Positions 7,443-23,986 of a stretch of 32,664 bases of DNA are shown here, one piece after another. The notes under the pieces are model-generated. The model searched no databases and was not told where the DNA came from. It saw only the letters and a list, made by a program, of their open reading frames with translations. Both the position numbers and the translations under genes were made by a program. Source of the stretch: an uncultured Clostridia bacterium (lineage in GTDB: Bacteria > Bacillota > JAAYKD01 > CAYOCI01); NCBI GenBank assembly GCA_964540595.1, contig CAZINL010000004.1, forward strand, positions 3,758 through 36,421. Reading direction: 5' to 3'. Positions within the stretch are counted from its first letter, which is position 1; every line of letters begins with the position of its first letter.

Positions 7443-9368
7443 CTAGCTTGTCGCCACTACGGGTTCGCGCAATGCCCCCGTCTCCATACGGTCATCCGCA
7501 TAGTACTGCGCCTGCGCAACCCACAGCTCACGATATTTGCCACTCTCGTCTGCCACGAGCTGATCGTGGCTACCCTGCTGCACCACTTGGCCCTGGTCGA
7601 AGACCAGGATCTCGTCGCAGAAGCGGCAGGAGGAGAGGCGATGACTGATGTAGATGGCAGTCTTGTCGCTGACGATCTCATTGAACTTGGCGTAGATCTC
7701 AGCCTCAGCCACCGGGTCCAGTGCGGCGGTGGGCTCGTCGAGAACGATGAAGGGGGCGTCTTTGTAGAGCGCACGGGCAATGGCGATCTTTTGCGCTTCG
7801 CCACCGGAGACCTCGACACCCTTCTCGTCAAAATCCTTGTATAGGCAGGTGGCGACACCAGCGGGCATCTCTCTTAGCCGATCACCGAAGCCAGCTTCCT
7901 TGAGGCACTCTTCCACTCGCGCCTGATCATAGTCCATAGTGGTCGCCACGTTCTGCCCCAGCGGGTAAGCGAACAGCTTGAAGTCTTGAAAGACCACAGA
8001 GAAGACCGACAGGTATTCGTTGTAGTCATACTTCTTGATGTTGATGCCATTGAGCAGGATCTCGCCTTCGGTCGGGTCGTAGAGGCGGCAGAGCAGCTTA
8101 ATGAAGGTGGTCTTGCCACTGCCGTTTTCGCCGACGACCGCGAGACGCGAGCCGATCTTGAACTTCATCGAGACATGACGCAGGGCGTAGATGTCAGACG
8201 TCGGATACTTGAACGATACATCGCGAAACTCGATCTCGTAGTGGCGGTCGGAGCGCTTTTCGACGGTGAGCGACCCCTGATACATATCATTGGGAGTATC
8301 CAAGAGCTCGAAAGTCTCACGCAGGAACGCGGCGTTGTTCTGCATATCGCCCAGCGTGGAGATTAGCGACGCCACCCCACCGGAAAACGAGGTGATCGCG
8401 CTGATATATTGCGTGACTGACCCTACACCGAAGGCGCCGCCCCATGCTTTGAGACAGACAAAGACGTAGACGATTCCGGTAAAGACATGTGATACGGCAG
8501 CGGACAAGGCGCTCAGCGCTCCCATCGGACCGCGCGCATAGCGAGCCAACTTGCCTCGGGGTCCAAAGACATGGTCCTGATGGAAGTTCTGTCGGCAAAG
8601 GATATCCTGCCGATACATGCGGATATCGAGCGCGCGGTCGTGGTCATAGGCCATGAAACCGTAGAAGCTGAAGCGACGGTTCGCTTCCCTGGCACCATCG
8701 GCGGATCTGGTCCAATAGCTATTGGCTTGGTTGGATAGGACGGGGGCCAGAAAGGTCACCGCGAACATAATGGCAATGATCAGCACGATGAAGATGGGAT
8801 GATTTAGCCGGCTGAGAGTTCCGGCGCTGGCGGGAACGCGCAGTGTAAACAACGAGATACTCAGGGCGGCAGCCCCAATAATCTTCATCAGCGCGGTCAG
8901 TAGACCCTCCGTGTATTCAAAGAGCTTGCCAAGCCCCCAACCGCCCCAACTGCTGTTCTGGCGTATCTGCGAACGCAGGTCATGGGTATGGGGATCATCG
9001 ACCGAACAGAAATCCATGGCCAAAAGCTTATCAGCAAAGATCTTCTCCTGCCGGTAATAGCGCCCGGCGTGCGCGGAGTTCTTCCAGCGCTCTAGGGCGG
9101 CTTTGAACAGTGTCAGCAGGGCGGTCGATGCCAGCGTGACCACCACCAACCGGGAAAGACGCTCAAGCTCTCGAGCCCCAGCCAGCTCATTGATGATCTG
9201 TGCGGACAGGTAGATGCCGACATAGGGTGTCAGCGCGTTGACCACAGCGTAGATCGCCGAGGAGACAAAGATCAGCGGATAATGCTGCCACCAGATCAGG
9301 AACGCCTTCGCATTAAGCTTCAGGGCCTCACGCACCGGTACCTTATCCGCAACGTTTTTGTTCGTCAT
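7443..9368 (-). CDS. ABC exporter half-transporter (TMD-NBD fusion)
   Basis: N-terminal TM-rich domain. Walker A GENGSGKTT, signature VSGGEAQKIAIARAL, Walker B FIVLDEPTAALD, H-loop ISHRL. Start taken at ATG 9368 (MTNKNVADK...), with GGGAGGG about 11 nt upstream; it overlaps the upstream ABC gene by 26 nt. Confidence 0.9.
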   Translation of the reverse strand: MTNKNVADKVPVREALKLNAKAFLIWWQHYPLIFVSSAIYAVVNALTPYVGIYLSAQIINELAGARELERLSRLVVVTLASTALLTLFKAALERWKNSAHAGRYYRQEKIFADKLLAMDFCSVDDPHTHDLRSQIRQNSSWGGWGLGKLFEYTEGLLTALMKIIGAAALSISLFTLRVPASAGTLSRLNHPIFIVLIIAIMFAVTFLAPVLSNQANSYWTRSADGAREANRRFSFYGFMAYDHDRALDIRMYRQDILCRQNFHQDHVFGPRGKLARYARGPMGALSALSAAVSHVFTGIVYVFVCLKAWGGAFGVGSVTQYISAITSFSGGVASLISTLGDMQNNAAFLRETFELLDTPNDMYQGSLTVEKRSDRHYEIEFRDVSFKYPTSDIYALRHVSMKFKIGSRLAVVGENGSGKTTFIKLLCRLYDPTEGEILLNGINIKKYDYNEYLSVFSVVFQDFKLFAYPLGQNVATTMDYDQARVEECLKEAGFGDRLREMPAGVATCLYKDFDEKGVEVSGGEAQKIAIARALYKDAPFIVLDEPTAALDPVAEAEIYAKFNEIVSDKTAIYISHRLSSCRFCDEILVFDQGQVVQQGSHDQLVADESGKYRELWVAQAQYYADDRMETGALREPVVATS

Positions 9369-11250
9369 TCTGCGCACGTCCCTCCCGATAATAGCGGCTC
9401 TGGATGGTAAACAGCTCCGCGTACCTTCCACCTTGAGCCAATAGATCATCATGGGTTCCTTCTTCGGCGATCACACCGTCTTCGATGAACAAGATGCGAT
9501 CGCAGAAGCGGGTGGAGGCTAGGCGGTGGGAGATGTAGATTGAGGTACGCCCTTCAGTCAGGTCGTTGTATCGCTGGTAAATATCGCTCTCCGCGATTGG
9601 GTCGAGGGCCGCGGTGGGCTCGTCGAGGACGATGATGGGCGCATCCTTGTACAGCGCTCGCGCCAGCATCAGTCGCTGCAACTCACCGCCCGAGAGCTCA
9701 GGGGCATCTTCAAAGACCTGCTTGCCAAGGCGTGTCTCATAACCATCGGCAAGGCTTTCCACCTTGCGTTTCAGCCCGGCCCTCTCGATGCAGGCGCGCA
9801 CCTCATCCATGTCGATCCCCTCATTAGTCTGGGCGACATTGCCGGCAATGGTCGCCGCCAACAGTGAAAACTGCTGAAAGACCGCGGCGAAGTGCCGGTA
9901 GTAATCGCGGCGGTTGTAGGCCTTGATATCTCGACCGTTGAGCAGCACCTCGCCGCTGGTGGGGTCGTAAAAGCCACAGATCAGCTTGATTAGCGTCGTC
10001 TTGCCTGCGCCGTTTAAGCCGACGACCGCTAGCTTCTCACCCGCCTTGATGGTGAGGTTAATGCCATGCAACGTATCCCGGTCAGCCCCCGGGTAACGAA
10101 ACGCCACGTCTTGCAGCTCGATCTCGTAAGCCTGGTCGAGGTCTGGTTCGAGTGGCTCGCCGTCCTCAAAACGGAAGCACTCCTCAGCCTCGAGAAATTC
10201 GCGCACCGTGGAGATGTCGAGGCTCTGCTTATGCAGGGTGGTCAGTCCGGATAGGATGCCACTAACCCAAGTCGTAAAGCCGCCAACCGCTGTGAAATGC
10301 AGTAGGAATTGCGCAGCACTTAGCCCGCTGCGCAGGGTGAAGGCGATCAGGTACGCATAGGCGATACCGTTACGTAACAGCGACAGCACCACATCGATCA
10401 CATTGGCCCAGATATAGACCTTTTCCCGGCGCACACAAAACGCCTGGTACAGGTTGAGGGTGCTGCCATAGACGCTCTCCAGCCAGTTCTGCATGCCGAA
10501 GATGCGGATATCCTTGGCAAAAGTATGATCACCGGCTTTGCTGCTGGCATAGTTCATCCGGTGCGAGTATCCCGCCGCCTCTTCACGGTGGCGATAGCCC
10601 CAGTTGTTGATCTCTTTGGTGATGAAGTAGCCTATCACTGTCGTCGCCAGTGTGATGATGACGATCAGCGGGTCCAGCGACGCCAGCAGCACCAGGTAGA
10701 TAACAAACCCGGCGCTATTTTGCACCAGCTCGGTCAGCGTCTTCCAGATAGCCTCGGTCGCCTCGTCGTTATTGTTAACCGCCATCCGCGCTTTTTCGAG
10801 CTGTTTGAGGAAGCCCTGATCCACAGTATTGGGAAAAGAGGTCTGCGAGAACTTATCATGGATTTGGGAAACCAGAGCTCCGCGCACCGCGACACGACCG
10901 AAAAGCGTGTTGGCACCGACATAGGCGCTCGCCGCACCGACCAGCATCAGGGCCAGCGCGAAGGCGGCGATGGTGCCGAGCAGCCTCGTGAGCGGAGCCG
11001 CGGCCTCGATGGTCCCCAGCACGGTCGGCACAATAAACAGACCGAGCAGGCTGCTGGCCACCGCCAGCGCAGCTTGGATCAGGCACAGCCAGAGAACGCT
11101 CCTCTCGGTCCGCCAGGCTAGGCTTATCATATAGACGGCATTGCTCCAGATGCCATGTTTTGGTTTGATCCGGTTCTCTCTTTGGGCAGCATCCACTTGC
11201 ATCATCCTCCTCGACACCGAGTTTACCACCGATTTCCTTATTGCTGCCAT
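9343..11250 (-). CDS. ABC exporter half-transporter (TMD-NBD fusion)
   Basis: Walker A GLNGAGKTT, signature LSGGELQRLMLARAL, Walker B IIVLDEPTAALD, H-loop ISHRL. The start is uncertain: ATG 11250 has no RBS, whereas GTG 11196 has AGGAGG 9 nt upstream. Confidence 0.88.
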   Translation of the reverse strand: MAAIRKSVVNSVSRRMMQVDAAQRENRIKPKHGIWSNAVYMISLAWRTERSVLWLCLIQAALAVASSLLGLFIVPTVLGTIEAAAPLTRLLGTIAAFALALMLVGAASAYVGANTLFGRVAVRGALVSQIHDKFSQTSFPNTVDQGFLKQLEKARMAVNNNDEATEAIWKTLTELVQNSAGFVIYLVLLASLDPLIVIITLATTVIGYFITKEINNWGYRHREEAAGYSHRMNYASSKAGDHTFAKDIRIFGMQNWLESVYGSTLNLYQAFCVRREKVYIWANVIDVVLSLLRNGIAYAYLIAFTLRSGLSAAQFLLHFTAVGGFTTWVSGILSGLTTLHKQSLDISTVREFLEAEECFRFEDGEPLEPDLDQAYEIELQDVAFRYPGADRDTLHGINLTIKAGEKLAVVGLNGAGKTTLIKLICGFYDPTSGEVLLNGRDIKAYNRRDYYRHFAAVFQQFSLLAATIAGNVAQTNEGIDMDEVRACIERAGLKRKVESLADGYETRLGKQVFEDAPELSGGELQRLMLARALYKDAPIIVLDEPTAALDPIAESDIYQRYNDLTEGRTSIYISHRLASTRFCDRILFIEDGVIAEEGTHDDLLAQGGRYAELFTIQSRYYREGRAQNDEQKRCG

Positions 11251-11295
11251 TTTGGGGATGAGATGCGCGTTGCGGGGGACGAAATGCTAAGCGGT

Positions 11296-11955
11296 CTACT
11301 GCGGCAGGAGTATCTCGGTGGTAAAGGCGCCATCCTCGCTGTTGCGGCTGATATAGCCACCATACCGCTCCACGATCTGGTCAATGTGTACGAGTCCATA
11401 GCCATGTCCTTCGCCCTTGGACGTAGCGAAGCGTCCGTTCTCCTTGCGCTGCTTGTTCGTCGCCGTCAGGTTGGTAAACGACATGTAGAGCTGCGTGTTC
11501 TTCATCTCCATGTAGACGCGGATCAGGCGCTGATCTACAGGCAGAGCTAGGCTGGCCTCGATGGCGTTGTCAAAGAGGTTGCCGATGATCACGCACAGGT
11601 CGAGCTCTGCGGTGGTCAGCGCCACCGGGATATGGGCGTCGGCCCTCACGGGGATTAGCTTGGACCGAGCGAGGGAGATCTTGCTGTTGAGGATCGCGTC
11701 AGTCATCCGGTTGCCCGTCTTGATGATCGTCTCCACCGCCGCTAGGTCTGTATCTAGCTCATCCAGATAGCGCTGGATGGCCGCCAGGTCGCCTGACGCA
11801 GCGTAGCTCTTCATCGTCTGGATATGATTGCGGTAATCGTGCCGCCAGCCACGCATTTCGTTGTACATATTCTCGACCTCGGCATAGTGGGTCTGGATCA
11901 GTTCGCTCTGGTAGGTGGCGATCCGCTTGTCGATCAGCTTTGAAATGAGCCACAT
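11296..11955 (-). CDS. GHKL histidine kinase of the LytTR-partner (AgrC/NatK-like, HPK10) type, lacking any membrane sensor domain
   Basis: H-box MRGWRHDYRNHIQTM, N-box IGNLFDNAIEAS, G-box GEGHGYGLVHI. Only 219 aa, with no TM segments. Sits 12 nt downstream of the LytTR regulator gene. Confidence 0.85.
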   Translation of the reverse strand: MWLISKLIDKRIATYQSELIQTHYAEVENMYNEMRGWRHDYRNHIQTMKSYAASGDLAAIQRYLDELDTDLAAVETIIKTGNRMTDAILNSKISLARSKLIPVRADAHIPVALTTAELDLCVIIGNLFDNAIEASLALPVDQRLIRVYMEMKNTQLYMSFTNLTATNKQRKENGRFATSKGEGHGYGLVHIDQIVERYGGYISRNSEDGAFTTEILLPQ

Positions 11956-11967
11956 GGCGGCACCTCC

Positions 11968-12672
11968 TTAGAAGTAACTAATCATCGCCCGGTTCAGAGG
12001 CTCGTACATCCCGCGCGACAGGGGGATGACCGCTCCGCTCTTGAGATGCACGTCTGTCTTGGTGATCTTGCGGATGTAGCGCAGATTGACAATGAATGAG
12101 CGGCCGACACGGAAGAAGCTCTCGTCCAGCTCCTTCTCAATCTCGCCAAGCGGCCTTTTGACGACATGCTCCTCGCGGGCGTGGATGGTGACATAGTTCT
12201 GCCGGACTTCGAGGTAATGGATCTCGTACAGTGGGATGCGGACCGCCTCGTCGCGAGAGTCTAGCAGCAGAGCCTGCTCATTGCGCTTGAGCTTGTCCGC
12301 CGCTCGGTTTAGCACGGCACACAGCTTCCCTTCATTGACCGGCTTCATTAGGTAGTGCAGCGCTTCCACGTCGTAGCCGTCGGCGATATACTCCATGTAG
12401 CCGGTGACAAAGACGATCTGCACTTCCTTGTTCGCCGCCCGGACGGCTTTGGCAAGGGCGACGCCGTTCATCTGCCCCATCTCAATGTCCAGCAGCAGAA
12501 TATCGTATGCTTTGTCCTCGGCATAGCGCAGCAGGAATGCTTCGGCCGACGGGAAGGTCGCGATCGCAGCGCTATGGCCGGTCGCATCGGCCCATCTAGC
12601 CACGAGTGTGGCGATGAACCTCAGGTCGGCGGGTTGGTCGTCGCAGATCGCAAAGCGGTAGTGCATGATCAT
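11968..12672 (-). CDS. LytTR/AlgR-family two-component response regulator (REC + LytTR DNA-binding domain)
   Basis: REC features (FAICDDQ, ILLLDIEMGQMNG, VFVTGY, YLMKP) and a C-terminal LytTR domain (YLEVRQNYVTIHAREE ... FFRVGRSFIVNLRYI). AGGAGG RBS. Confidence 0.92.
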   Translation of the reverse strand: MIMHYRFAICDDQPADLRFIATLVARWADATGHSAAIATFPSAEAFLLRYAEDKAYDILLLDIEMGQMNGVALAKAVRAANKEVQIVFVTGYMEYIADGYDVEALHYLMKPVNEGKLCAVLNRAADKLKRNEQALLLDSRDEAVRIPLYEIHYLEVRQNYVTIHAREEHVVKRPLGEIEKELDESFFRVGRSFIVNLRYIRKITKTDVHLKSGAVIPLSRGMYEPLNRAMISYF

Positions 12673-12855
12673 TCCTCCTGTGGCTGATCTGTCGTGATAT
12701 GGTTACGCCGCGGCACCCATCATGACCTTTGCCACGAGAGGGAAATGTGGGACGATCACGGAGACCCGCTCAAAGAGGCGTAGCCTAGCGCGATCTTCCG
12801 GGCTGGTAACCGCATGGGATCGTGGTGGTCGAGGAAGTCGCACGGGGGGTAGGGG

Positions 12856-12910
12856 AAGTCATAACGATGGGCAGGGCGTACCGTTTACGCCCTGCCCATC
12901 GTTATGACTT
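12856..12910. repeat. REP-like palindromic hairpin, copy 2 (25-bp perfect stem; terminator of the NUDIX gene)
   Basis: AAGTCATAACGATGGGCAGGGCGTA (12856-12880), loop CCGTT, TACGCCCTGCCCATCGTTATGACTT (12886-12910), an exact reverse complement. The core GGGCAGGGCGT is shared with copies 1 and 3. Confidence 0.75.
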
Positions 12911-12921
12911 GTTCATTTTTG

Positions 12922-13446
12922 CTAATCTCGCGTTGCTTCGCTCAGCATCTCCATCGAGAGCGGCAGATGACTGACCCTGTCAAGCACCCAGCCGCGGTAG
13001 TGACAATAGTGCCTACGCGGAGCGCCTTCGCCGTCTCTGGTGCTCAACATCTGCGGCAGGAAGTGAGGGATATTGTCTACTACCGTCTGATCGGGGTTGG
13101 TGCAGACATACTCGATGGAGAACCAGTCGAGTAGTCCTTCGTCGCTCTGCCGGCCGCGCGCGACTTCGGGCGAGAGCTCTTTAGGCCAGTCGGCAAAGTA
13201 GACATACATGCCTGCCTCACCCGTCTCCGCCGCTCCGCCCCACGTGACCACCCCGGCAAACTGCACGCGGCTGATACGGATGCCGACCTCTTCACGAATC
13301 TCACGGATGATGCACTGGCGAGGCGTTTCATCCGGCTCTAGCTTACCACCCACGCCGTTGAGTAGGTGCGCGTTGGGGGTCTTATTGCGGCGCAGCATTA
13401 GGACTCGATCGCTGCGAAAAATGAAAGCGAGCGTATACTTGAGCAA
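12922..13446 (-). CDS. NUDIX hydrolase
   Basis: Nudix box GVGGKLEPDETPRQCIIREIREEVGI. The first about 45 codons of the 13581 ORF look non-coding (Arg/Ser/Pro-rich). TTG at 13446 with GAGGGGA 9 nt upstream gives MLKYTLAFIFRSDRVLML..., a normal Nudix N-terminus. The start remains uncertain. Confidence 0.72.
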   Translation of the reverse strand: MLKYTLAFIFRSDRVLMLRRNKTPNAHLLNGVGGKLEPDETPRQCIIREIREEVGIRISRVQFAGVVTWGGAAETGEAGMYVYFADWPKELSPEVARGRQSDEGLLDWFSIEYVCTNPDQTVVDNIPHFLPQMLSTRDGEGAPRRHYCHYRGWVLDRVSHLPLSMEMLSEATRD

Positions 13447-13744
13447 CCTTCTACATCCCCTCTGCCGATCAGTGTTGTCTCGACCTTTGGGGTTGTATTC
13501 GCTTGGTGAAGACTCGTTCCTGCTTGGTGTCCGCCTAACTAATGGAACAGGGGACCTATGACAAGTGAAGCACGACCTCACGCCAGCGAGGGTACATCAA
13601 ACCACCGCAGCTGTGAGCAAAGAAAATAAGTCGAAAAAGATCAGATTATCACGAAAAAGAGGAAGGAAAAACCTGATCAAGGTAGTAATTAATAATCACT
13701 ATTGCTAGCAGTCAGATCTCATTACTGTGAAAGGAGTTGAGATA

Positions 13745-16495
13745 ATGCTGTATCGTCAATTTCAGCAGCTATCACGCCAATTTCTCTATGGGATTGGGGT
13801 GCAGTCGGCGCTGATACTGGGGCTGTTGCTGCTCACTCGTGGGCAGGGGGAGATGGTTCATGGCGTGCTGCCATGGCTGTTGTGTGGCGGATTGGTGATA
13901 TCCTCACTCCTGCTGTGGACGGCTCTGCGCGTCCAGAAGATGATGGATGCCAGCATCCTCACTCCGCTCAAACAAGCGTTAGCTGTTCTGACCAAGTCAG
14001 GAGTGATCGTCAAACCAGGCGAAGATGAAGTTCAGGCGATCTTGTCTTCAGTCATGCAAGTGGATTATATCGTCAGTGTTGATCGGATTCGTCAGAAGGT
14101 CTATGCCCTCTGGAACTCGGTCAATAGCGACTATGAGGCAATCAATGGTTCATTGGCTCTCTTTGGCGAGGCAGGGCACATTCTTAGCGGTGCCTACTAT
14201 CACTATGATAGCTTCACCGACGAGCTACGTTTGACCGCCTCCTATGCCTTTCCCGAGAGTGGCAAGACCGTTCTAAGGTATGGTTCCGGTCCCGTGGGTG
14301 AGGCTGCAGCGCACAATCGTACCGCGATAATCGAGGATCCCGACATGAGCATCTCGGTAGGCCTGGGGCAGATAAAGCCAGGTCTCTTGGGGTGTTTCCC
14401 GGTCCAGGGGCAGCGCTTGCATGGAGTCTTTGTCTTGGCTTTCCCCAGTCGTACGACCCCTGATCATCTTAAGATCATGCAAATGTATGCCAATCAGACA
14501 GGGGTTGTCCTGGATCGTATCCAGCAATACGATCAACTGAAGAAGGTCTCCCATGATCTGAGGGACAGAACCAGAGAGCTAAACAAGGAACTGAAGCATA
14601 GTGTCTCGATTCTCAATAGCTCTGCCGATGGGATCACCATTTTGACACCAGAAGGAGTGATCACCTCTTTTAGCCGTGGTGCCGAGATCATTACCGGGTA
14701 TACCACCGAAGAGGTCATGGGGAGGCCCTGCTGCGAGATCTTAAAGCATTCCTCACAAAACTACGAAGATCTCTGTGATACGCCGCTCTGCGCCCTCTGT
14801 CAGGCCACACTGACTGGGGAGCCTGCCACCGGCAAGGAGCTCTACTTGACGCATAAGGATGGCAGCCGTGTTCCCATTCTCCTGAGCGTCAGCCCCATCA
14901 AAGATGAGAACGGCAAGGTCATCGAGGTCTTGCAGATCTTCAAAGATATGACGGAGATCAAGAACAACCTGACGGCACTGGAGCAGGCCAGCCGTAGCAA
15001 GAGTGAATTCCTAGCGACCATGTCCCATGAACTGCGTACACCGCTCAATTCCGTGTTGGGTTTTGCGGAACTCCTGGATGCGCAAAGCTTTGGCGATCTC
15101 AATGACCGGCAAAAGCGCTACGTCAGCAACATCATGACGGCTGGCAAAGACCTCCTGACCCTAATCAACGATATCCTAGATCTCTCACGTATCGAGGCTG
15201 GCCGCATGGAATGGGAGAGGGAGATGGTGGATCTGCGCCAGTTGATCGGTGGTGCAGTCAATCTCCTGCGCGAAAAGGCGGCCAGCAATGGCCTCAAGAT
15301 GGCCATTCATGTGGACGATGCCGTGGACCGCTTCATCGGTGACGAGAGGAAGATCAAGCAAATTCTCTACAATCTACTCTCCAATGCGGTGAAATTCACC
15401 CCCAGTGGGGGGCAGGTGGGGGTCGACGCCACGATCCGTGATGGGGTGCTAGACCTGAGCGTGTGGGATACCGGGATTGGCATCCCCAAGGAAAAGTGGC
15501 AGACGATCTTTGAGCCCTTCTACCAAGTGGACAACTATCTGACCCGCAAACATCAAGGTTCCGGTCTAGGACTGGCCTTGGTGAAGAAGATGGTCAGTCT
15601 TCCCGGTGGCGAGATCTGGGTAGAGACACAAGAGGGGAGGAGCACTGTCTTCCGCCTGCGCATTCCGCAGGGGCCAACCATGCCCACAGCGAGTGTTGCG
15701 CCGGAGGAAACGATACCCATGGCCACCTTCTCCTTGCCAATGCAGGGCCCTAGTCGCCGCTGCCTGGTGATCGAGGATGACCGCCCAACGGCGGAACTGG
15801 TTGAAACCTATCTCCGCGGGCTGGGGTTGGAGACCACCATTGCTGCCTCCGGGGAAGAGGGACTGGCGGAGTTGGCCAAACAGGTTCCGGACCTGATCGT
15901 CTTGGATCTGCTTCTACCGGGGATGAGTGGATGGGACGTTTTGGCACAGATCCGACTCTCGCCGTTCCTCAGCCATGTCCCTGTCTTGATCACCTCCATT
16001 CTTGACGAGGCCAGGAAAGGGTTGGCTGTCGGCGCTTGGGACTACTTGATCAAGCCCATCGACCAGGCGCAGCTGTCCGAGTGTGTCCAGCGCATCTTAC
16101 GGATGCGCGGCCAAGGCTATCACGCTCTAGTGATCGATGACGATCCCCAAGCCCGAGAACTGATATCCACCCATCTTGGACTGCTGCATATGCAGGCCCA
16201 TACGGCGATGACCGTCGAAGAAGGGCTGCAAAAGGCCCGTGCGCTGCGGCCAGACATTATCTTTTTGGATCTCATGCTCCCCGAGGTCAATGGCTTCGAG
16301 TTCCTCCAACGCAAGGAAGAGTCCCACGAAATCTCTTCTATCCCTGTGGTCGTGGTTAGTTCCAAGACGTTGTCCTCTGAAGAGCGCCGTTTCCTCGAGT
16401 CTCGTGCACTGGTGGTGGCTCGTAAGAGCGAGTTTGGTAAGGAAGACTTCAATGTCAAGGTGTTAAGGTTGCTCAAAGAAGGGGGGACAGCATGA
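13745..16495 (+). CDS. Hybrid sensor histidine kinase: 2 TM - GAF - PAS (Cys-rich) - HisKA - HATPase_c - REC - REC
   Basis: TM segments at the N-terminus; a GAF-like region (GEAGHILSGAYYHY ... VFVLAFPS); a PAS domain (ADGITILTPEGVITSFSRGAEIITGYTTEEVMG). H-box MSHELRTPLNSV, N-box NLLSNAVKFT, G-boxes DTGIGIP and GSGLGLALV. Two receiver domains (LIVLDLLLPGMSG; IIFLDLMLPEVNG). ATG 13745 is preferred because AAGGAG (13731-13736) lies 8 nt upstream. Confidence 0.92.
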   Translation: MLYRQFQQLSRQFLYGIGVQSALILGLLLLTRGQGEMVHGVLPWLLCGGLVISSLLLWTALRVQKMMDASILTPLKQALAVLTKSGVIVKPGEDEVQAILSSVMQVDYIVSVDRIRQKVYALWNSVNSDYEAINGSLALFGEAGHILSGAYYHYDSFTDELRLTASYAFPESGKTVLRYGSGPVGEAAAHNRTAIIEDPDMSISVGLGQIKPGLLGCFPVQGQRLHGVFVLAFPSRTTPDHLKIMQMYANQTGVVLDRIQQYDQLKKVSHDLRDRTRELNKELKHSVSILNSSADGITILTPEGVITSFSRGAEIITGYTTEEVMGRPCCEILKHSSQNYEDLCDTPLCALCQATLTGEPATGKELYLTHKDGSRVPILLSVSPIKDENGKVIEVLQIFKDMTEIKNNLTALEQASRSKSEFLATMSHELRTPLNSVLGFAELLDAQSFGDLNDRQKRYVSNIMTAGKDLLTLINDILDLSRIEAGRMEWEREMVDLRQLIGGAVNLLREKAASNGLKMAIHVDDAVDRFIGDERKIKQILYNLLSNAVKFTPSGGQVGVDATIRDGVLDLSVWDTGIGIPKEKWQTIFEPFYQVDNYLTRKHQGSGLGLALVKKMVSLPGGEIWVETQEGRSTVFRLRIPQGPTMPTASVAPEETIPMATFSLPMQGPSRRCLVIEDDRPTAELVETYLRGLGLETTIAASGEEGLAELAKQVPDLIVLDLLLPGMSGWDVLAQIRLSPFLSHVPVLITSILDEARKGLAVGAWDYLIKPIDQAQLSECVQRILRMRGQGYHALVIDDDPQARELISTHLGLLHMQAHTAMTVEEGLQKARALRPDIIFLDLMLPEVNGFEFLQRKEESHEISSIPVVVVSSKTLSSEERRFLESRALVVARKSEFGKEDFNVKVLRLLKEGGTA

Positions 16496-16866
16496 GAGCG
16501 TTGGTTGTTGAGGACAATCCGTTGAACATGGAACTGATGGAGGCCATTCTCATCTCACAGGGCTGCGGTATTATCAAGGCGTCCACTGCTGAGGAAGCAG
16601 AGCTTTTCCTGGCCGGCGAGCACCCGGATATCATCTTCCTCGATATTCAGCTGCCGGGGATCGATGGGATGACCCTAGCCAGCCGCATTCGCAGCCGTGT
16701 CCAGTTTGCTCGTACCCCCTTGGTCGCTGTGACCGCTCATGTCATGCCGGGAGATGCCGAGAAGATCAGAGAAGTGGGCTTCGATTACTACCTACCAAAA
16801 CCAGTGCAGATCAGCGAGCTGGTTCGTTTACTTCGTAGGCAGGGAGGCGGCGGCACTGGGCAGTAG
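16492..16866 (+). CDS. Single-domain CheY-like response regulator receiver
   Basis: MRALVVEDNPLN, IIFLDIQLPGIDG, LVAVTAH, YLPKP. ATGA overlap with the stop of the hybrid kinase (16492-16495). Confidence 0.9.
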   Translation: MRALVVEDNPLNMELMEAILISQGCGIIKASTAEEAELFLAGEHPDIIFLDIQLPGIDGMTLASRIRSRVQFARTPLVAVTAHVMPGDAEKIREVGFDYYLPKPVQISELVRLLRRQGGGGTGQ

Positions 16867-17863
16867 GATATGGTCCATCGCTGTGGTGGAGGACAACTCG
16901 GCCAATGCGGAGCTCATGGAGGCTTTTCTGCGCATCAAAGGTTACGCTGTCTCGATCTACAGCAACGGTCAAGACTTTTGGGCGGCAGTACAGCAGAGAG
17001 GGTTTGATCTGATTATTCTCGATGTCATGCTCGGCGGGATCAATGGGTTTGAGATCTGCCGGCGCCTAAAGGCGGACTCGGTGACCAGGATGGTGCCAGT
17101 GATCCTTCTGACCGCGTTGGACACTCTGGAGCACAAACAGGTCGGCTATGCTGCCGGCGCCGATGATTATGTGGTCAAACCAGTGAACTGGCCGGAGTTT
17201 TACCTCAAAGTCGGCTCCCTGCTACGCAAAAAAGAGCTGCACGATGAATTTGAGGCCATGGATAACGTCCTTTCCACCTTGGTGAAGACCGTTGAAAGCC
17301 GTGATCGTTATACAGCTGGGCATTCGGAGCGTGTGGCAGCCATTGCCACTTGCCTGGCTAGGGAGATGGGGTTGCCGGTCGAGGACGTGGCTCTGCTGCA
17401 CCGTGCCGGGGTACTGCATGACCTGGGCAAGGTGGCCGTGGATAGTCATATTCTCAACAAACCGGGAGCGCTGTCTGCCCTAGAGTTCCGAGCTGTTCAG
17501 CAGCACCCCTCTGTTGGTGCGGAGATCCTCGTTCCCATGAGTCGGGCCCAGACGATCGTGCCGCTGGTACGTAACCATCACGAGAAGCTGGATGGGAGTG
17601 GCTACCCCGATGGCTTGAAGGGGGATGAGATTGGCTTGTTGACGAGGATTCTGACTGTGGCCGACATCTACGATGCACTGACCAGTCAACGGCCTTATCG
17701 CCGAGCCATGGTTCCCATCGAGGCGCTGCAGGTGATGTTTCGGGATGCCAACGCCAACAAGATTGACCCCGACATTACTCGGATATTGGCGGAAGTAGCA
17801 ACAGGGAGGAGATTTGCCGATGAAATTAGGATGGTTGCGGCAGAGGCTGTTGGGCGGGTTTAG
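16856..17863 (+). CDS. Response regulator with HD-GYP domain (predicted c-di-GMP phosphodiesterase)
   Basis: REC ([39 protein letters not shown]) plus HD-GYP ([26 protein letters not shown]). The start codon is problematic. The REC beta-1 strand requires a start at or before about 16877, and the only SD-supported codon is CTG 16856 (AGGGAGG 16841-16847, 8-nt spacer). The ATG at 16739 would overlap the upstream gene by 128 nt. Confidence 0.85.
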
Positions 17864-19502
17864 TCTCGTTTTGGTATTCATGTTGGTCATTGGTGGGGTC
17901 GCCTACTGGGGGTTTGACTCCCTACATCACATTGCGGAGGAGCTTGCCGGGGTGGCTCGGGTGGATACGGAGACGCTGAAGGCGGAGTCGGCCCATCTCG
18001 AATTCATGCAGCGCTTCTATCAGATGTTCCTGACGGAAAAGCTGATCGCGGAACCGGTGGGACCCCATGACTGCAATTTCGGCAAGTGGTATGATCGTTT
18101 CACTCCTGATGCCCAGGTCGCGACTACCTTCATAGCCATGGACAAGCCTCATCAGACGGTTCATGACGGTGGCAAACAGGTCTGGCAGCTGGCCTCGAGT
18201 GGCAACTTCGCCGAAGCCAAGCAACTCTTCAACAGCAAGGTCGCTCCAGCGGTGGACGAGCTGCGCTCCTACCTGGGGCAGATGCAGCAAGAGAATGCCC
18301 GCCATATGACCGCACAGGTCGATGACAGCGAGGCCATGGCGCAGCAGATGAACATGATCATCCTGGCGGTGGTCGCTGTCGCTTTCATTCTCGCCCTGCT
18401 TATGGCTTTGACCACCGCTCAGGCGATCGCCGAGCCGGTCTTGACGTTGACCAAGGGGGCGCAAGCGGCAGCCCACGGAGACCTCACCGTCGACCTCGAG
18501 GGGGTACGGGCCAAGGGTGAGCTTAAGGAACTGGTGCACTATTTTAGGGTGATGACTGAGAACCTCAAGACTCTCATCCATGAGGTACTAAACAAGGCCC
18601 ATGATGCCAGTGGTTCCAGTGAGATGCTGGCGCAGAACGCCAATGAGGCTGGTCGTGCAGCGGAACAGATCGCCGCATCCATTGCCGAGGTGGCGGAGCG
18701 AGGGGAGCATCTGACCGATGAGGCCGACAAACTGCGCCAACAGGGAGATCAGCTCAACAGCGCCGCTCTTACACTGCAAGAGAATGCGTCCACTAGCTTG
18801 GGCCTGATTCGTGATACCGAGAACTTGGCGACCAAAGGCAGCCAGGCGGTTAACCAGGCTACCCAACAGCTGCAGGTGGTCACGGAAACAGTGAATTTCG
18901 CTACCGGTGCCATCCAGAAGCTGGCCAAGCGTTCCGGCGAGGTGGGAAGCATCGTGCGGATCATCGATACCATCTCTTCTCAGACCAATCTCCTGGCGCT
19001 CAATGCGGCCATCGAGGCGGCCAGAGCCGGAGAAGCGGGGCGCGGGTTTGCCGTCGTGGCCGAAGAGGTGCGCAAGCTAGCAGAGGAATCGGCGGTGGCG
19101 GCCCGCAGGATTACCAGCCTGATCGAGGATATCCAGTCGGAAACCACGGTGACGGTCAACTCCATGGAGGTCAATGCCGAAGAGGTTGCCCGTCAACTAG
19201 GAATGATCAGCACCGCTGGCGAGACGCTGAACACCATCGTGGCGTCAGCACAGGAGAGCCGCCGTTCGTCCGAGAAGGTGATGGAGGTCAGCCGCTTGCT
19301 GCAGGCCAATCGAGAGCAGCTAGCTAGGATCATCCATGTTCTGGCTGAGTCGCTGGGCGGCAATGCCGCCAGTTCCGAAGAGGTGGCAGCGGCAGCGGAG
19401 CAGCAAAATGCCTCTACTCAGGAGGTGGCGGCAGCCGCAGATTACCTGCACGGCATTACCGAGCAACTGCAGGCTGCGGTCAGCAAGTTCAAACTGAGCT
19501 GA
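17820..19502 (+). CDS. Methyl-accepting chemotaxis protein: TM1 - CZB (zinc-binding) motif - TM2 - HAMP - MA signalling domain
   Basis: Conserved MCP hairpin tip [40 protein letters not shown]. Two TM helices ([23 protein letters not shown]; [21 protein letters not shown]). Full CZB pattern between them. ATG 17820 with GGGAGGAG (17804-17811) 8 nt upstream; it overlaps the HD-GYP gene by 44 nt. Confidence 0.92.
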
Positions 19503-19552
19503 TCAGCCCTTGAGCTAATCCTAAAACCACAAACCACGGACGGAGGTGAACC

Positions 19553-19873
19553 ATGCTTAACGTTGAACGCAAAAATGGTGCTCTCATTGTCCATCTCACG
19601 GGTGAGCTGACCTTTGCCAATTCGACCGCCATCAAGGAAGAGATCAAAAGCTTGATGGAGCCCGACGAACAGCGCTTGATCCTAGAAGCAGCTCAACTGC
19701 AACTGATCGATAGCTCAGGTGTCGGTGTGGTTGTCTCACTGCTCAAACGGATGAACGGTCAGGGGATAGCCTTAGCCGGGCTGCAACCTCGTGTACGGCG
19801 AGTCTTTGCTATTACCAAGATCGACCTGATTGTGCCCACCTATGAAACATTGGATGAGGCCCTGCAAGTATGA
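19553..19873 (+). CDS. STAS-domain anti-sigma-factor antagonist (SpoIIAA/RsbV-like)
   Basis: 106 aa with typical STAS layout (GALIVHLTGELTFANSTAIKEEI) and the phosphorylatable-serine motif LIDSSGVGVVVSL. GGAGG RBS. Confidence 0.9.
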   Translation: MLNVERKNGALIVHLTGELTFANSTAIKEEIKSLMEPDEQRLILEAAQLQLIDSSGVGVVVSLLKRMNGQGIALAGLQPRVRRVFAITKIDLIVPTYETLDEALQV

Positions 19874-20259
19874 AGTGGCGTGGCGTCTGCTACAGTGAAG
19901 CCGCTGCTCTGACCAGCCTGCGTGATCAAGCTATCGCCGCGGTCCAATCATGGCAGGTGGTCGATGACGATACCCTCTTTGATCTGCAGGTGATCTTATG
20001 TGAGTTGCTCTGCAATGCCGCGGAACACGGTAACCAGTGGGGCGCTGCGACCGAGGTACGACTGCAGATTCGTTTCCTGGTGCATAGGAGACTGATACTG
20101 ATCTTGGTCCGCGACCAGGGGTCTCAGCTCATCGCTGGCCCCGTCGAGGGTGGCAGCGATGACGAACGTGGGCGCGGCTTGCAGCTAGTCCAGGCTCTCT
20201 CCGACCAATGTCGACTGGGGCGTGGCATGGTCTGGATACGGAAGGGGGCCACAGTGTGA
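19870..20259 (+). CDS. Anti-sigma regulatory factor / serine protein kinase (SpoIIAB/RsbW-like GHKL)
   Basis: N-box-like CELLCNAAEHGN and G-box-like GRGLQLVQALS; 129 aa. ATGA overlap with the STAS gene stop (19870-19873). Confidence 0.8.
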   Translation: MKWRGVCYSEAAALTSLRDQAIAAVQSWQVVDDDTLFDLQVILCELLCNAAEHGNQWGAATEVRLQIRFLVHRRLILILVRDQGSQLIAGPVEGGSDDERGRGLQLVQALSDQCRLGRGMVWIRKGATV

Positions 20260-21299
20260 CACCCAAAATACTGATCGTCGATGATGAAGCACTCAACCGT
20301 GAACTGCTGCTCGGTTATCTCGAAGGCAAAGGGTATCACTTACTGGAGGCGGATTGTGCTGCGGCAGCTCGGGCAGCCATCGCCCAACATGACCCCGACC
20401 TCGTGCTGCTAGACGTGATCATGCCGATGGAGGATGGGTTCTCGCTATGTGAAGAGCTGAAGAAGAACATGATCGAGCCCTACCTGCCCGTCATCCTGGT
20501 CACTGCCCTGGCCGACAAAGAGAGCCGTGTTCACGGTCTGGCCTGTGGTGCCGATGACTTTCTCTCCAAGCCGGTGGATCGTTTGGAGCTGGTGGTCAAG
20601 GTGCGCAACATGTTGAAGATCCGCGCCCTGCATAAGAGTCTCTTCGATGAGCTGCTCTTTGCCCAACAGGTCCAACAGAACCTCTTCTTCGCCGATATCC
20701 AGCTACAGGATAGAGATCGGCTTTACTATGAACCCTGCCGTCGTGTGGGCGGCGACCTCATCGAGCTGTGGGAGCAGGACGGGGCGCGGTGGGCGCTGAT
20801 CGCCGACGCCTCCGGGCACGGGCCTTCGGCCGCGCTGATCGCCACCGCAGCCAAGGCGCTGATTGATCAACGCAGCGCTACACCGGCGGAACTGCTGGCC
20901 AAGATGAACTCTCGTCTACTGCAGTTGTTACCGGGCGAGACCCCCTATCATCTGACCGCTGCCTGCCTCTGCCACCGCGGGGGTCAGCTGCTCTTTTCCG
21001 GAGCGGGGCATCCACCGGGCTATCTCACTTCCGAGGATGTTCACGCTCTGGAGAGCCGATCCATACCTCTGGGAGTGTTGCCCCACCAGCGCTATAGCGA
21101 TCAGATACTCCCGGTGGCTCCCGGCGGCTGGGCCTTCCTCTATAGCGATGGGTTGCTGGATCTGATCAGCGAGGAAGAGCTCCACGCGCTGATCGACCAA
21201 AGCGCTAACGGCCAGCAGCTGGCTGACCGTCTTAAGGGGCTGATCGCTGGTCAGACCCTCAGCGATGACATCTCGTTCTTGACCATGGCGCTGGGGTAG
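20256..21299 (+). CDS. Response regulator with PP2C/SpoIIE-type serine phosphatase domain (RsbU-like)
   Basis: REC (KILIVDDEALNRELL, LVLLDVIMPMEDG, ILVTAL, FLSKP) plus PP2C (GGDLIELW, LIADASGHGPSAA, GAGHPPG, LYSDGLLD). GTG 20256 overlaps the upstream TGA (GTGA), with GGAAGGGGG 7 nt upstream. Confidence 0.9.
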   Translation: MTPKILIVDDEALNRELLLGYLEGKGYHLLEADCAAAARAAIAQHDPDLVLLDVIMPMEDGFSLCEELKKNMIEPYLPVILVTALADKESRVHGLACGADDFLSKPVDRLELVVKVRNMLKIRALHKSLFDELLFAQQVQQNLFFADIQLQDRDRLYYEPCRRVGGDLIELWEQDGARWALIADASGHGPSAALIATAAKALIDQRSATPAELLAKMNSRLLQLLPGETPYHLTAACLCHRGGQLLFSGAGHPPGYLTSEDVHALESRSIPLGVLPHQRYSDQILPVAPGGWAFLYSDGLLDLISEEELHALIDQSANGQQLADRLKGLIAGQTLSDDISFLTMALG

Positions 21300-21315
21300 C
21301 CAGTGACGGGTGCAC

Positions 21316-21360
21316 ATCACGAAGGGCAGGGCGTGTGGTACACGCCCTGCCCTTCGTGAT
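21316..21360. repeat. REP-like palindromic hairpin, copy 3 (20-bp perfect stem; bidirectional terminator)
   Basis: ATCACGAAGGGCAGGGCGTG (21316-21335), loop TGGTA, CACGCCCTGCCCTTCGTGAT (21341-21360). Lies between the convergent REC-PP2C and tnaA genes. Confidence 0.75.
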
Positions 21361-21388
21361 CATCCTGTGCGTTGTCAGTCATGGTATG

Positions 21389-22768
21389 TTACTTGAGCGG
21401 TCTCAGCTTGGCCGTGAAATGCCTGAGGACCTTCGGTTGCCAGACGATCTCATAGCCCGTCACCTGTTCAGCACGTTTCTGGATATTGATCAGCGCCTGC
21501 GCGACCACATCCAGATGCGCCTGGGTGTAGACACGGCGCGGCAGACATAGACGGGTGAACTCCATCTCGCTTTGTGGTTGCTCTCCCGTAACCGGATCGG
21601 GATCCAACATATACGAACCAATGTCGCAGCCACGGATGCCGGCTTCGAGGTAGAGTTCCAACGCCAGTGCCTGCGCCGGGAACTGATAATACGGAATATG
21701 CGGCAGCATCTTCTTGGCATCGATAAATACCGCGTGTCCGCCGACGGGATACTGGATCGGCACACCGCCTTCACGCAGCAGCTCACCGAGGTATTCGACC
21801 TGCCCGATACGGTAACGCAGGAAATCAGTATCAGTACCCTCATAAAGGCCAATGGCCAAGGCTTCGAGATCACGTCCAGCCAATCCGCCATAGGTAACAA
21901 AGCCCTCGTAAGGGACGGTGAGACCCTTTACCTTCTGGAAAAGCTCCTCGTCTTCCCTAACACCAATCAACCCGCCCATATTCACAATGGCGTCTTTCTT
22001 GGCCGACATGGTAAAGGCACAGGCATAGCTGAACGCCTCGCGGGTAATCTCGATGATCGACTTATCTGCGTAGCCTGGCTCTCTCGTCTTGATGAAGAAA
22101 GCATTCTCGGCAAACCGTGCCGCGTCAATAATCATCGGGATCCCATACTCTTCGGCGACCCGGGCAGTCTCACGAATGTTGGCCATCGAAACTGGCTGTC
22201 CGCCGGCGGTGTTATTGGTGATGGTCATGATGATCACGCCGATCTTCTCGACGCCGACCTTTTCGATGAAGGCACGCAGGGCCGGGATATCCATGTTGCC
22301 CTTAAAGGGTGCATAGCGGCTGGTATCGCGTGCTTCACTGACGACGACGTCGATCGGCACTGCTTGGCACAGACCCACATGACCACGGGTGGTATCGAAA
22401 TGCATGTTGGCAACCGAGTACTGGCCAGGTTTGAGTAAGCAGGGGAGCAGCACCTTTTCCGCGGCCCGCCCCTGGTGAACCGGCTGAGCGAAACGGTAGC
22501 CAAAGATGTCCTTGACTGCATCCATCAGACGATAGTAGCTGCGAGCACCGGCATAGCTCTCATCACCCTTGAGCATGCCTGCCCACTGGCTGTCACTCAT
22601 GGCACCGGTGCCACTGTCGGTGAGCATGTCAATATAGACATAATCGCTCCGCAGTGCGAACACGTTGTAGTCTGCTCCCCTGAGATACTGCTCTCGTTCC
22701 TCCCTAGTGGTCATCTTAAGCGGTTCCACCATCTTGATCTTGAAGGGTTCAGCGATATAGTTTGCCAT
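21389..22768 (-). CDS. tnaA: Tryptophanase (tryptophan indole-lyase; beta-eliminating lyase family)
   Basis: PLP-lysine motif [41 protein letters not shown] and VLRHFTAKL closely resemble my memory of E. coli TnaA ([35 protein letters not shown]) rather than tyrosine phenol-lyase. ATG 22768 with GGGGGAA upstream. Confidence 0.85.
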
Positions 22769-22920: not shown

Positions 22921-23253
22921 TTACATACTCTTCAGCATGTCGCGGGGGTTGGGGGCTTTGACGACGAAGAACTCCAGCACCTCGTCGTGGTGATTGCGCA
23001 CGTCCATCTGTGTAAGAAAGGGAACGTTGACGATCTGGCCGGTGGTGTACTCCTGCGCCTCTTGGTCGCCTAGCGTTATGGTCATGGTCCCGCTGACGAT
23101 GATCATGTGGACGTGGGAATTGGCTGGGTGCGGCGGCAAGGCGGTCCCTTTGGGCAGGATCATATGGTTGATAGCCACATTGGGATGGTCGATGACCTTT
23201 TCCATCAGGCGCTCAGGTGACGAACGGGCGAATTGATAGACGGTTTCGATCAT
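22921..23253 (-). CDS. Cupin domain protein
   Basis: Cupin_2-like His pattern (LPPHPANSHVHMIIVSGTMTITLGDQE). ATG 23253 with GGAGGGG 6 nt upstream is preferred over 23274. Confidence 0.72.
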   Translation of the reverse strand: MIETVYQFARSSPERLMEKVIDHPNVAINHMILPKGTALPPHPANSHVHMIIVSGTMTITLGDQEAQEYTTGQIVNVPFLTQMDVRNHHDEVLEFFVVKAPNPRDMLKSM

Positions 23254-23281
23254 GCTGTTCCCCTCCAATCTCATCCCGGCG

Positions 23282-23986
23282 CTACTTCTTCAGCACGCGA
23301 GGATGCAGGATGTTGTTCTCGAGGTGGATATGTTCGAAGAGATCGGCCTCCATCTCCTGCATCTGCTCATAGGCTTTGGCGTAGGTACCGCACGCGTCGG
23401 CAGGGACTTTGTAGTCGGCGGTGATGGCACGCAACTCCTTGAGGATGTCGCCCGCTCCCGTGTGCTCGGACTCCACCCGCTCGATCTCCGTCCTCAGTTT
23501 AGTCAAGACCGCTTGGTCGCCGTTCGCTTCGTATTCCTTAACCAATGGGAAGACCGTTTCTTCCTCAGAAATCAGATGCTGATCCAAATCCATCTTCAGG
23601 GTATGAAAGAGCTTGTGCACTTTGGTCAGTTCGCTGTGGTTGGCTCCATGGGCGCGCAGGACTGTAGTGGTCAGGCGGCTCAGTTCCGGCAGAGCGGTCT
23701 GTAGATAAGCGTGATGGGTATTAACGATATGGTCGACCAGCTTAGAGAGCGGCTCCTTCGTCCAATCGGTATTGGTGCTACGGGAGGCAAGGCTCTCTTG
23801 GTAGGCTTGGTTCAGTTCAGCCAGGAGTTGTTCAGCATCGGCCCCATGTGCCTTCGCCGCCTCGCTAATCGGGCGGTGGCCACCGCAGCAGAAGTCGACT
23901 TGGTGTTTGCGAAGGATCTCACTGGCTTTGGGGAAGCGTGCCACGATATCCCCGAGTTTGTCCTCGTGACAGAAGCTGTTAGTCAT
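23282..23986 (-). CDS. ric: Iron-sulfur cluster repair di-iron protein (RIC; ScdA/YtfE/DnrN family)
   Basis: ScdA_N motif KLGDIVARFPKASEILRKHQVDFCCGGHRPISEAA followed by hemerythrin-like His/Glu repeats (HHAYL, HSELTKVHKLFHTL, EEETVFP, HIHLENNILHP). Confidence 0.9.
   Translation of the reverse strand: MTNSFCHEDKLGDIVARFPKASEILRKHQVDFCCGGHRPISEAAKAHGADAEQLLAELNQAYQESLASRSTNTDWTKEPLSKLVDHIVNTHHAYLQTALPELSRLTTTVLRAHGANHSELTKVHKLFHTLKMDLDQHLISEEETVFPLVKEYEANGDQAVLTKLRTEIERVESEHTGAGDILKELRAITADYKVPADACGTYAKAYEQMQEMEADLFEHIHLENNILHPRVLKK

Follow-up and report, generated by a model that had tools for sequence, protein, structure and literature searches.

A CZB chemoreceptor gene linked to a partner-switching module in a conserved signalling operon of anaerobic Bacillota

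In the F7/Che1 clusters of Shewanella, Vibrio and Pseudomonas, some chemoreceptor genes adjoin genes for partner-switch proteins, and why they do so is an acknowledged question. The same question is raised by a locus of an uncultured Clostridia bacterium, contained in a stretch of 32,664 nucleotides of contig CAZINL010000004.1 (GenBank assembly GCA_964540595.1, positions 3,758 to 36,421 of the forward strand), referred to here as the window. Seven + strand open reading frames (ORFs), packed tightly across positions 13745-21299 according to the ORF list and Pfam matches, encode a hybrid histidine kinase, a single-domain receiver (REC) protein, a REC-HD-GYP protein, a methyl-accepting chemotaxis protein (MCP), a STAS protein, a small kinase with the RsbW/SpoIIAB fold and a REC-PP2C phosphatase. 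A first-pass annotation of the sequence had already described this operon with its domains and junctions, and both were borne out by the ORFs, Pfam and the DNA sequence, the start of the REC-HD-GYP gene being either a CTG or a GTG codon. Two features had been missed, the CZB motif in the sensor of the MCP and the membrane anchoring of the hybrid kinase. As described below, the seven genes make up a conserved signalling operon, with multiple inputs, of anaerobic Bacillota. The annotation had also stated that it knew of no characterised system with an MCP embedded in a partner-switch operon; the McpA-CrsA-CrsR trio of Shewanella, in F7 clusters, is such a case (PMC9855816), and the operon is a variant of a chemoreceptor/partner-switch linkage already described in gamma-proteobacteria, not a new kind of system. 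In the literature on chemoreceptors and partner-switch proteins we found no published description of this operon, nor, in that on CZB or chemoreceptors and partner switching, of a CZB receptor linked to a partner switch.

Conservation of the link between chemoreceptor and partner-switch genes

The gene neighbourhoods of related loci rule against a coincidental juxtaposition. Eight orthologous contigs were read (L001, L002, L003/4, L005, L086/87, L088, L089), with GC contents of 39-57% and identities to the window of 72-94% for L002 and 41-57% for the diverged loci, and in every one the MCP(CZB), STAS, kinase and REC-PP2C genes are contiguous and in the same order. The genes that precede this core are more variable. 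Only the four-gene core is present in L003/4, L005 and L088, where the REC-PP2C is found without a kinase to feed it; L086 and L089 have the hybrid kinase and single REC in front of the core, and the seven-gene form with the REC-HD-GYP is that of the window and L002. All seven components, at 28-46% identity (41% for the MCP), are also encoded in L099/L100, with the REC and REC-HD-GYP genes in swapped order with respect to the window and, in L099, a separate gene for a MASE3 membrane protein just upstream of the kinase gene. Orthologs of the REC-HD-GYP were found only in L002 (94% identity) and L099 (46%), being absent from the four- and six-gene loci. Judging from gene content, the invariant core is made up of four genes, the hybrid kinase, the single REC and the HD-GYP being accessory. 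In favour of one coherent signalling unit, as had been proposed, the hybrid kinase, REC and REC-HD-GYP recur with the core in L099, even if all three are accessory to it.

The protein families involved are small. Orthologs of the REC-PP2C, at 49-92% identity, fall into 19 clusters in a set of 5.8 billion proteins; beyond this group identity is 39% or less (37% or less among full-length REC-PP2C proteins), and the MCP has a matching tier of around 25 clusters. For the small kinase, only five representatives of 50%-identity clusters were found below E = 1e-30 among 1.84 billion proteins, and a word-based homolog search returned five proteins only. The named carriers of orthologs are metagenome-assembled genomes of Clostridia, Zhaonellaceae included. 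A sigma factor in cis is absent from 11 of the 12 related loci, the exception being L088, with a SigI/RsgI pair on the opposite strand about 2 kb upstream, and no che genes are present within 10 kb in the orthologous loci.

A second arrangement was found by scanning metagenome contigs with an alignment of the small kinase. Two low-GC contigs, L093 (3949-12105) and L094 (131-8269), carry genes for PAS-PAS-PP2C, tandem HD-GYP, STAS, kinase, PP2C, STAS, kinase and MCP proteins, in this order and followed by an M20 peptidase gene, while L097 bears the same upstream set on a contig that ends before the MCP. The MCP of L093 and L094 belongs to the same CZB subfamily, with 35-36% identity and the same conserved cytoplasmic motifs, and the STAS copy adjoining it is the one that resembles the window STAS (E = 3e-18). 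Since the named MCP homologs at 34-38% identity come from Halanaerobium, Halanaerobiales and Iocasia, these three contigs are probably from Halanaerobiales. In this arrangement the MCP gene stands after the STAS-kinase pair, which is the slot of sigB or sigF after rsbV-rsbW or spoIIAA-spoIIAB. The second PP2C, beside the MCP-linked STAS and kinase, has no recognisable REC, and the link with the MCP is therefore independent of phosphotransfer to a REC.

Among more distant relatives, the nearest non-orthologous REC-PP2C (L091, 35% identical over 95% of the query) is encoded on a contig with 63% GC where genes for REC-PP2C, HATPase_c_2, STAS, CheA-CheW-REC, 4HB MCP, CheW, CheB and CheR proteins follow each other on one strand (8001-17137), in what looks like a Che pathway with a partner switch as its predicted output. 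As a control, 25 distant REC-PP2C loci among the matches listed were inspected, and none has an MCP neighbour; an HsbR-type locus (L090) likewise has no adjacent MCP. A profile search of genome contigs with the REC-PP2C gave no ortholog among the matches listed, the best of which was 30% identical, and forms in which REC-PP2C and kinase are fused appeared only among matches with 30-35% identity. The linkage of MCP and partner switch is best explained as functional and not coincidental, since it persists where identity has dropped to 35-41%, where GC content ranges from 35 to 57%, in four architectures and after the gene order has been permuted.

Predicted properties of the encoded proteins

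The MCP, of 560 amino acids, consists of a first transmembrane segment, an extracytoplasmic four-helix bundle, a second transmembrane segment (hydrophobic stretches at residues ~10-32 and 178-200), a HAMP domain (202-252) and a signalling domain. Its sensor matches the CZB family with a Pfam score of 48.9 bits against a cut-off of 29.4 (E 8.5e-13), and the alignment shows the motif H...GPH[DE]C.FG[KR]WYD...PHQ.[VI]H, which reads H...CNFGKWY...HQTVH in the window. The 3His/1Cys site, which includes the Cx[LF]GxW[LY] motif of the family, is conserved in every ortholog as well as in the L093 and L094 proteins. This predicts an extracytoplasmic CZB sensor of the Zn2+/redox type. Membrane chemoreceptors with a periplasmic CZB share with the window MCP the position of the 3His/1Cys motif in an N-terminal extracytoplasmic region (PMC8262984; Salmonella McpA, bioRxiv 10.64898/2026.07.03.735341). 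They are a rare subgroup, of 384 sequences or around 3.9% of CZB proteins (PMC8262984), and CZB receptors respond to oxidants, to redox state and to the availability of Zn2+ (PMC6715182; bioRxiv 10.64898/2026.07.03.735341). No identical database sequence was found for the MCP with either of two alternative starts. After the HAMP domain some 308 residues remain, split by the tip into arms of ~153 and 155, which fits the 44H class, an assignment by length only. The 32-residue hairpin tip, of the type that binds CheA and CheW, is invariant from the window to loci with 35% overall identity, and methylation-type motifs are conserved in both arms (RAAEQI in the N arm and SEEVAA.AEEQ.A in the C arm). 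On account of the tip, the methylation motifs and the length of its cytoplasmic part, the MCP probably works with CheA and CheW encoded elsewhere. These features, and the presence of a similar module inside a full che cluster in L091, speak against the earlier description of the MCP as an orphan; of the "self-contained circuit" that had been proposed, what stands is a coherent unit, with the MCP locked to the trio in every related locus, and not its being self-contained.

The STAS protein (106 amino acids) is assigned to the single-domain SpoIIAA/RsbV type by its match to the NCBIfam anti-sigma factor antagonist model TIGR00377 (69.9 bits, cut-off 53.45), its sequence matches in PDB (TM1442 and SpoIIAA) and a phospho-serine motif, DSSGVG, that is invariant in an alignment of seven orthologs. 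The small kinase is a separate protein, of 129 amino acids, and very divergent in sequence. A profile of its family matched RsbW in PDB with E = 1.4e-4 and SpoIIAB with ~0.04, and in a Foldseek search with an AlphaFold2 model (pLDDT 83) the top matches were RsbW, SpoIIAB and UsfX, with TM-scores of 0.7-0.8. N-box and G2 box (GRGL) are conserved, of the G1 box only D.G remains, and a deletion has shortened the ATP lid in comparison with the L093 and L091 kinases, which altogether predicts a minimal serine kinase of the RsbW/SpoIIAB fold. In the REC-PP2C, the receiver residues D9, D10, D53, T83 and K105 and the PP2C metal-binding residues D167, D184, G187-G189, D298, D337 and D338 do not vary among 18 orthologs. 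With these features, STAS, kinase and PP2C correspond in their predicted functions to the components by which a partner-switching module is defined. The order of the three genes and the size of the kinase led us to consider a stressosome-like RsbS-RsbT-RsbU module as well; this was rejected because the kinase profile and fold match RsbW, SpoIIAB and UsfX, with no RsbT or stressosome chain among the matches listed, and because the MCP has no STAS domain.

The accessory proteins add two-component elements and cyclic di-GMP (c-di-GMP) turnover to the core. The hybrid kinase has two transmembrane segments, which anchor it to the membrane, followed by GAF, PAS, HisKA, HATPase_c and two REC domains, with no HPt domain according to Pfam. 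From its ATG at 13745 it has 916 amino acids, against 915 for its L002 ortholog, and its identity is 88% to L002, 55% to L086, 57% to L089 and 39% to L099. The PAS domain carries a cysteine-rich insert, GRPCCEILKH...LCDTPLCALCQ (window 14730-14830, residues ~330-360), four of whose cysteines are kept in L002, L086 and L089 and down to the 39%-identical L099 protein. This suggests a metal, Fe-S or redox-sensing site, and such a site would fit the Zn/redox theme of the CZB receptor. The kinases of L089 (~700-1150) and L099 (~4300-4800) have an additional extracytoplasmic N-terminal domain of ~110-130 amino acids between membrane segments, which in L089 bears a CZB-like pattern (H...EC.LG.FL...H.KFH). 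It is missing from the window, L002 and L086 kinases, and this N-terminal sensor appears from the comparison to have been lost in some lineages. The single REC (124 amino acids), whose gene adjoins that of the hybrid kinase in L002, L086, L089 and L099, has the receiver regions of BarA and TorS as its best NCBIfam matches; being most similar to hybrid-kinase receivers, it is a candidate phosphate sink or shuttle. In the REC-HD-GYP protein both the LHDLGK motif and the 11-residue stretch of the GYP motif are visible in the translation, as expected for an RpfG-type protein, and it is a predicted c-di-GMP phosphodiesterase.

Operon layout and genomic surroundings

The features of the operon are collected in Table 1, and all junctions were read directly from the DNA sequence. 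The stop of the hybrid kinase gene overlaps the start of the single REC gene in an ATGA at 16492, and similar overlaps join STAS and small kinase (ATGA at 19870) and small kinase and REC-PP2C (GTGA at 20256). The MCP gene starts at ATG 17820, with GGAGGAG as its Shine-Dalgarno (SD) sequence; it shares 44 nt with the HD-GYP gene, and is separated by 50 nt from the STAS ATG at 19553. The only uncertain junction is that before the REC-HD-GYP gene. A start at CTG 16856, as chosen in the first annotation, has a GGGAGG SD sequence 9 nt upstream and retains strand beta-1 of the REC. GTG 16883 is the start that automated annotation gave to the gene in L002, a relative with 89% identity, and with it there is a gap of 16 nt; the junction is tight with either start. 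A promoter and terminator consensus scan inside the operon, the MCP-STAS gap included, gave nothing above shuffled background.

Table 1. Components of the operon and their positions in the window.
Feature	Position	Strand	Support
Hybrid histidine kinase	13745..16495	+	Pfam; AAAGGAG SD sequence at ATG 13745
Single-domain REC	16492..16866	+	Pfam Response_reg 4e-24
REC-HD-GYP	16856 (CTG) or 16883 (GTG)..17863	+	Pfam HD_5 8e-39, Response_reg 1e-24
MCP with CZB sensor	17820..19502	+	Pfam MCPsignal 3e-37, CZB 8.5e-13, HAMP, 4HB_MCP_1
STAS protein	19553..19873	+	Pfam STAS 5e-22
RsbW/SpoIIAB-fold kinase	19870..20259	+	Pfam HATPase_c_2 4.5e-14
REC-PP2C (SpoIIE-family)	20256..21299	+	Pfam Response_reg 9e-27, SpoIIE 9e-25
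20-bp perfect hairpin	21317..21359	none	Sequence and RNA fold

The closing hairpin noted in the first annotation is confirmed. Its 20-bp stem is closed by a loop of 3 nt, and it lies between the operon and a convergent gene for a beta-eliminating lyase; RNA folding of the 86-nt stretch that contains it gave a free energy of -54 kcal/mol, with z = -7.25 against shuffled sequences. It has no U tract and is absent from the calls of a consensus terminator scan; it is probably a bidirectional transcript end. With respect to the window, L002 has ~5.7 kb of extra DNA between the operon and the lyase gene (window 21300-21389; L002 11041-16891), encoding CotH, DUF4956 and VTC proteins as well as a kinase and its OmpR-type response regulator. 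The hairpin region is therefore where close relatives part, at the boundary of an indel or of a recombination event.

Pfam scans of 28 further ORFs elsewhere in the window (24 matched, 4 without match) revealed no sigma factor, CheA, CheW, CheR or CheB, as had been stated in the first annotation. A divergent gene pair on the - strand (11296-12672), encoding a GHKL kinase (HATPase_c_5, with a SpoOB-like helix) and a LytTR response regulator, lies directly upstream of the operon region and occupies the same position in L002. A PAS-GGDEF diguanylate cyclase is encoded on the - strand 4.4 kb downstream of the operon (25729-26556) and is a possible counterpart of the operon HD-GYP phosphodiesterase. 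Just past the lyase gene, also on the - strand (22921-23986), there are genes for a ScdA/hemerythrin protein (iron-sulfur cluster repair, di-iron) and a cupin, which suggests a neighbourhood connected with oxidative or nitrosative stress; the ScdA gene is kept in L002, where it adjoins a ferredoxin gene. Farther away (1228-2877, - strand) are genes of adaptive-response-like alkylation repair, for an Ada zinc-binding/AraC regulator, an HhH-GPD glycosylase and an O6-methylguanine methyltransferase.

Known systems and the possible target of the switch

Trios of chemoreceptor, STAS and REC-PP2C proteins have been described in the F7 che clusters of gamma-proteobacteria (Ortega et al.; PMC7184735), and che1 of S. 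oneidensis holds McpA, CrsA (a STAS protein) and CrsR, with CrsA and CrsR controlling RpoS (PMC9855816). The F7 stage-1/2 clusters of Shewanella, with relatives in Vibrio cholerae and Pseudomonas aeruginosa, resemble the window in having an MCP beside STAS and REC-PP2C proteins and no sigma gene. However, their trio is part of a complete cheA/W/R/B/D/Y cluster that includes an Aer2-like receptor, while the window has no linked che genes, and their kinase is fused to the phosphatase (REC-PP2C-HATPase_c_2), whereas that of the window is separate. The F7 clusters belong to Proteobacteria and have RpoS as their known target; the window family is from Bacillota and has no sigma factor evident. To our knowledge, Bacillota lack RpoS. 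The periplasmic CZB sensor on the MCP, and the addition of a hybrid kinase, a REC and an HD-GYP protein, also set the window apart from F7 clusters.

Within Bacillota, the RsbK-RsbY-RsbV-RsbW-SigB pathway of B. cereus comes close to the window, with a hybrid kinase (GAF, HisKA, HATPase, REC) that feeds a REC-PP2C, by which the STAS antagonist of an RsbW kinase is dephosphorylated (PMC4574943, PMC9912610), and RsbK has been proposed to phosphorylate RsbY directly (PMC9912610). That pathway includes chemotaxis-style methylation too, RsbK being methylated by the CheR-like RsbM, whereas the window has no CheR-like gene; in B. cereus sigB is encoded with rsbV-rsbW and the module has no MCP gene and no HD-GYP, while the window has no sigma gene. 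REC- or sensor-linked switches of PP2C, kinase and STAS are also formed by HptB-HsbR-HsbA of P. aeruginosa, SypE-SypA of Vibrio fischeri, SiaABCD and HenR/STAS of Anabaena. HsbA acts on HsbD, and SiaB and SiaC act on SiaD. HenR/STAS acts on a glycosyltransferase (PMC13555669), and the outputs of this group include a diguanylate cyclase, biofilm functions, the glycosyltransferase and c-di-GMP. These modules have no chemoreceptor gene and, unlike in the window, kinase and phosphatase are joined in one protein in HsbR and SypE. Finally, CheS, a STAS-only protein of alpha-proteobacterial che operons (Sinorhizobium/Agrobacterium), binds CheA and so acts directly on the chemotaxis machinery (PMC12654446, citing Dogra 2012); like the window STAS, it is encoded next to an MCP gene. 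CheS has no cognate kinase or phosphatase encoded beside it in those operons and no phosphorylation-driven switch is apparent there, whereas the window has both enzymes.

The first-pass annotation had offered two roles for the MCP, an additional input or the target of the switch. Both are compatible with the evidence, and the interaction itself is putative. We consider it possible, if somewhat short of an even chance, that the small kinase has as its alternative partner not a sigma factor but the chemoreceptor of the operon, or the CheA/CheW array of that receptor, encoded elsewhere. The receptor or array is favoured as target because the MCP is the only gene invariably linked to the STAS-kinase pair, because it holds the sigma position in L093 and L094, because the linkage holds where the PP2C has no receiver, and because there are known STAS proteins whose target is CheA, as with CheS, or something other than a sigma factor. 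In such a scheme the hybrid kinase would autophosphorylate and, since it has no HPt domain, pass phosphate directly to the receivers of the operon, with the two receivers of the hybrid kinase itself, and the single REC, acting as sinks or modulators. Phosphorylation would turn on the HD-GYP protein, and with it c-di-GMP hydrolysis, and would tune the PP2C. The RsbW-like kinase would phosphorylate the STAS serine and the PP2C would remove this phosphate; unphosphorylated STAS would capture the kinase, freeing the kinase's alternative partner. The switch would in this way gate or skew the signals of a single Zn/redox receptor, with c-di-GMP adjusted in parallel. That the receptor or array replaces the sigma factor as target altogether, STAS phosphorylation gating a single Zn/redox receptor through a two-component-controlled PP2C, is a more doubtful proposition.

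Several points weigh against a receptor or array as the target. In Shewanella, McpA signals to the main chemotaxis system, and CrsR/CrsA act on RpoS encoded elsewhere (PMC9855816). The modelled fold of the small kinase is exactly that of anti-sigma factors, and a sigma factor may be its target in trans, while its incomplete G1 box leaves its catalysis putative. Fusions in distant relatives of the kinase family are of the types kinase-STAS, kinase-REC-kinase-STAS and REC-PP2C-kinase only, and among those examined there was none to an MCP or to a sigma domain. The invariant tip and the methylation motifs of the MCP fit an ordinary chemotaxis receptor, perhaps linked to the switch by co-expression alone, and the single-operon structure is a prediction from gene arrangement.

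Information could also flow in the opposite direction, with the array as input and the partner switch as output: the CZB receptor would act through a CheA in trans, perhaps together with the hybrid kinase, on the REC of the PP2C, and a sigma factor or effector in trans would be released, giving a non-motility output like that of the alternative cellular function (ACF) class. This is a real, if rather unlikely, possibility. It agrees with the placement of REC-PP2C, kinase and STAS in a full che run in L091, with the four-gene loci where nothing linked feeds the REC-PP2C, with the conservation of helix alpha-1 of the PP2C REC between loci with and without a hybrid kinase, with the anti-sigma-factor fold of the small kinase and with Shewanella, where che1 with CrsR/CrsA has been proposed to feed RpoS control (PMC9855816, PMC7184735). 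On the other hand, the MCP linkage of L093 and L094 persists though the adjoining PP2C has no recognisable REC, the PP2C REC resembles receivers of the PleD/PhoB type and not CheY, no sigma factor is linked, and CheA and CheW are encoded neither in the window nor within 10 kb of the orthologous loci.

It is less probable that the genes are two modules which share regulation and not wiring, an ordinary MCP being co-transcribed with a switch for the same redox or metal stress while the switch acts independently on a sigma factor or a c-di-GMP enzyme. The canonical features of the MCP, the lack of any fusion joining it to a switch component and the signalling of the neighbouring McpA of Shewanella to a separate F6 chemotaxis system (PMC9855816) would be expected in that case. 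But the linkage is kept in at least four architectures, down to ~35% identity and through a permutation that leaves the MCP beside the STAS-kinase pair, and MCP and REC-PP2C, both of rare families, have similar numbers of orthologs (~25 and 19 clusters); such persistence is unusual for mere co-regulation. A coincidental juxtaposition in one genome of independent transcription units, for which the 50-nt gap between the MCP and STAS genes could be invoked, is highly improbable given the adjacency in every related locus examined, across GC contents of 35-57%, and the lack of promoter- or terminator-like signals above shuffled background in that gap.

This operon family pares down the problem posed by the F7 clusters, as it combines the absence of che genes with one CZB receptor, a split kinase and phosphatase and a variant with the receptor in the sigma slot. 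MCP homologs with 34-38% identity are present in cultured Halanaerobium and Iocasia species (Halanaerobium salsuginis, H. saccharolyticum and Iocasia frigidifontis), and the link would be experimentally accessible there if their loci are arranged alike. Were the array to feed the switch, the operon would be a compact chemosensory pathway whose output is gene regulation or c-di-GMP, in strict anaerobes, which must avoid oxidants. If, as we tentatively prefer, it is the receptor or its array on which the switch acts, this would be a new mode of chemoreceptor regulation, and gating of the receptor would constitute a receptor-specific, phosphorylation-driven layer distinct from methylation and from CheD/CheC/CheV.

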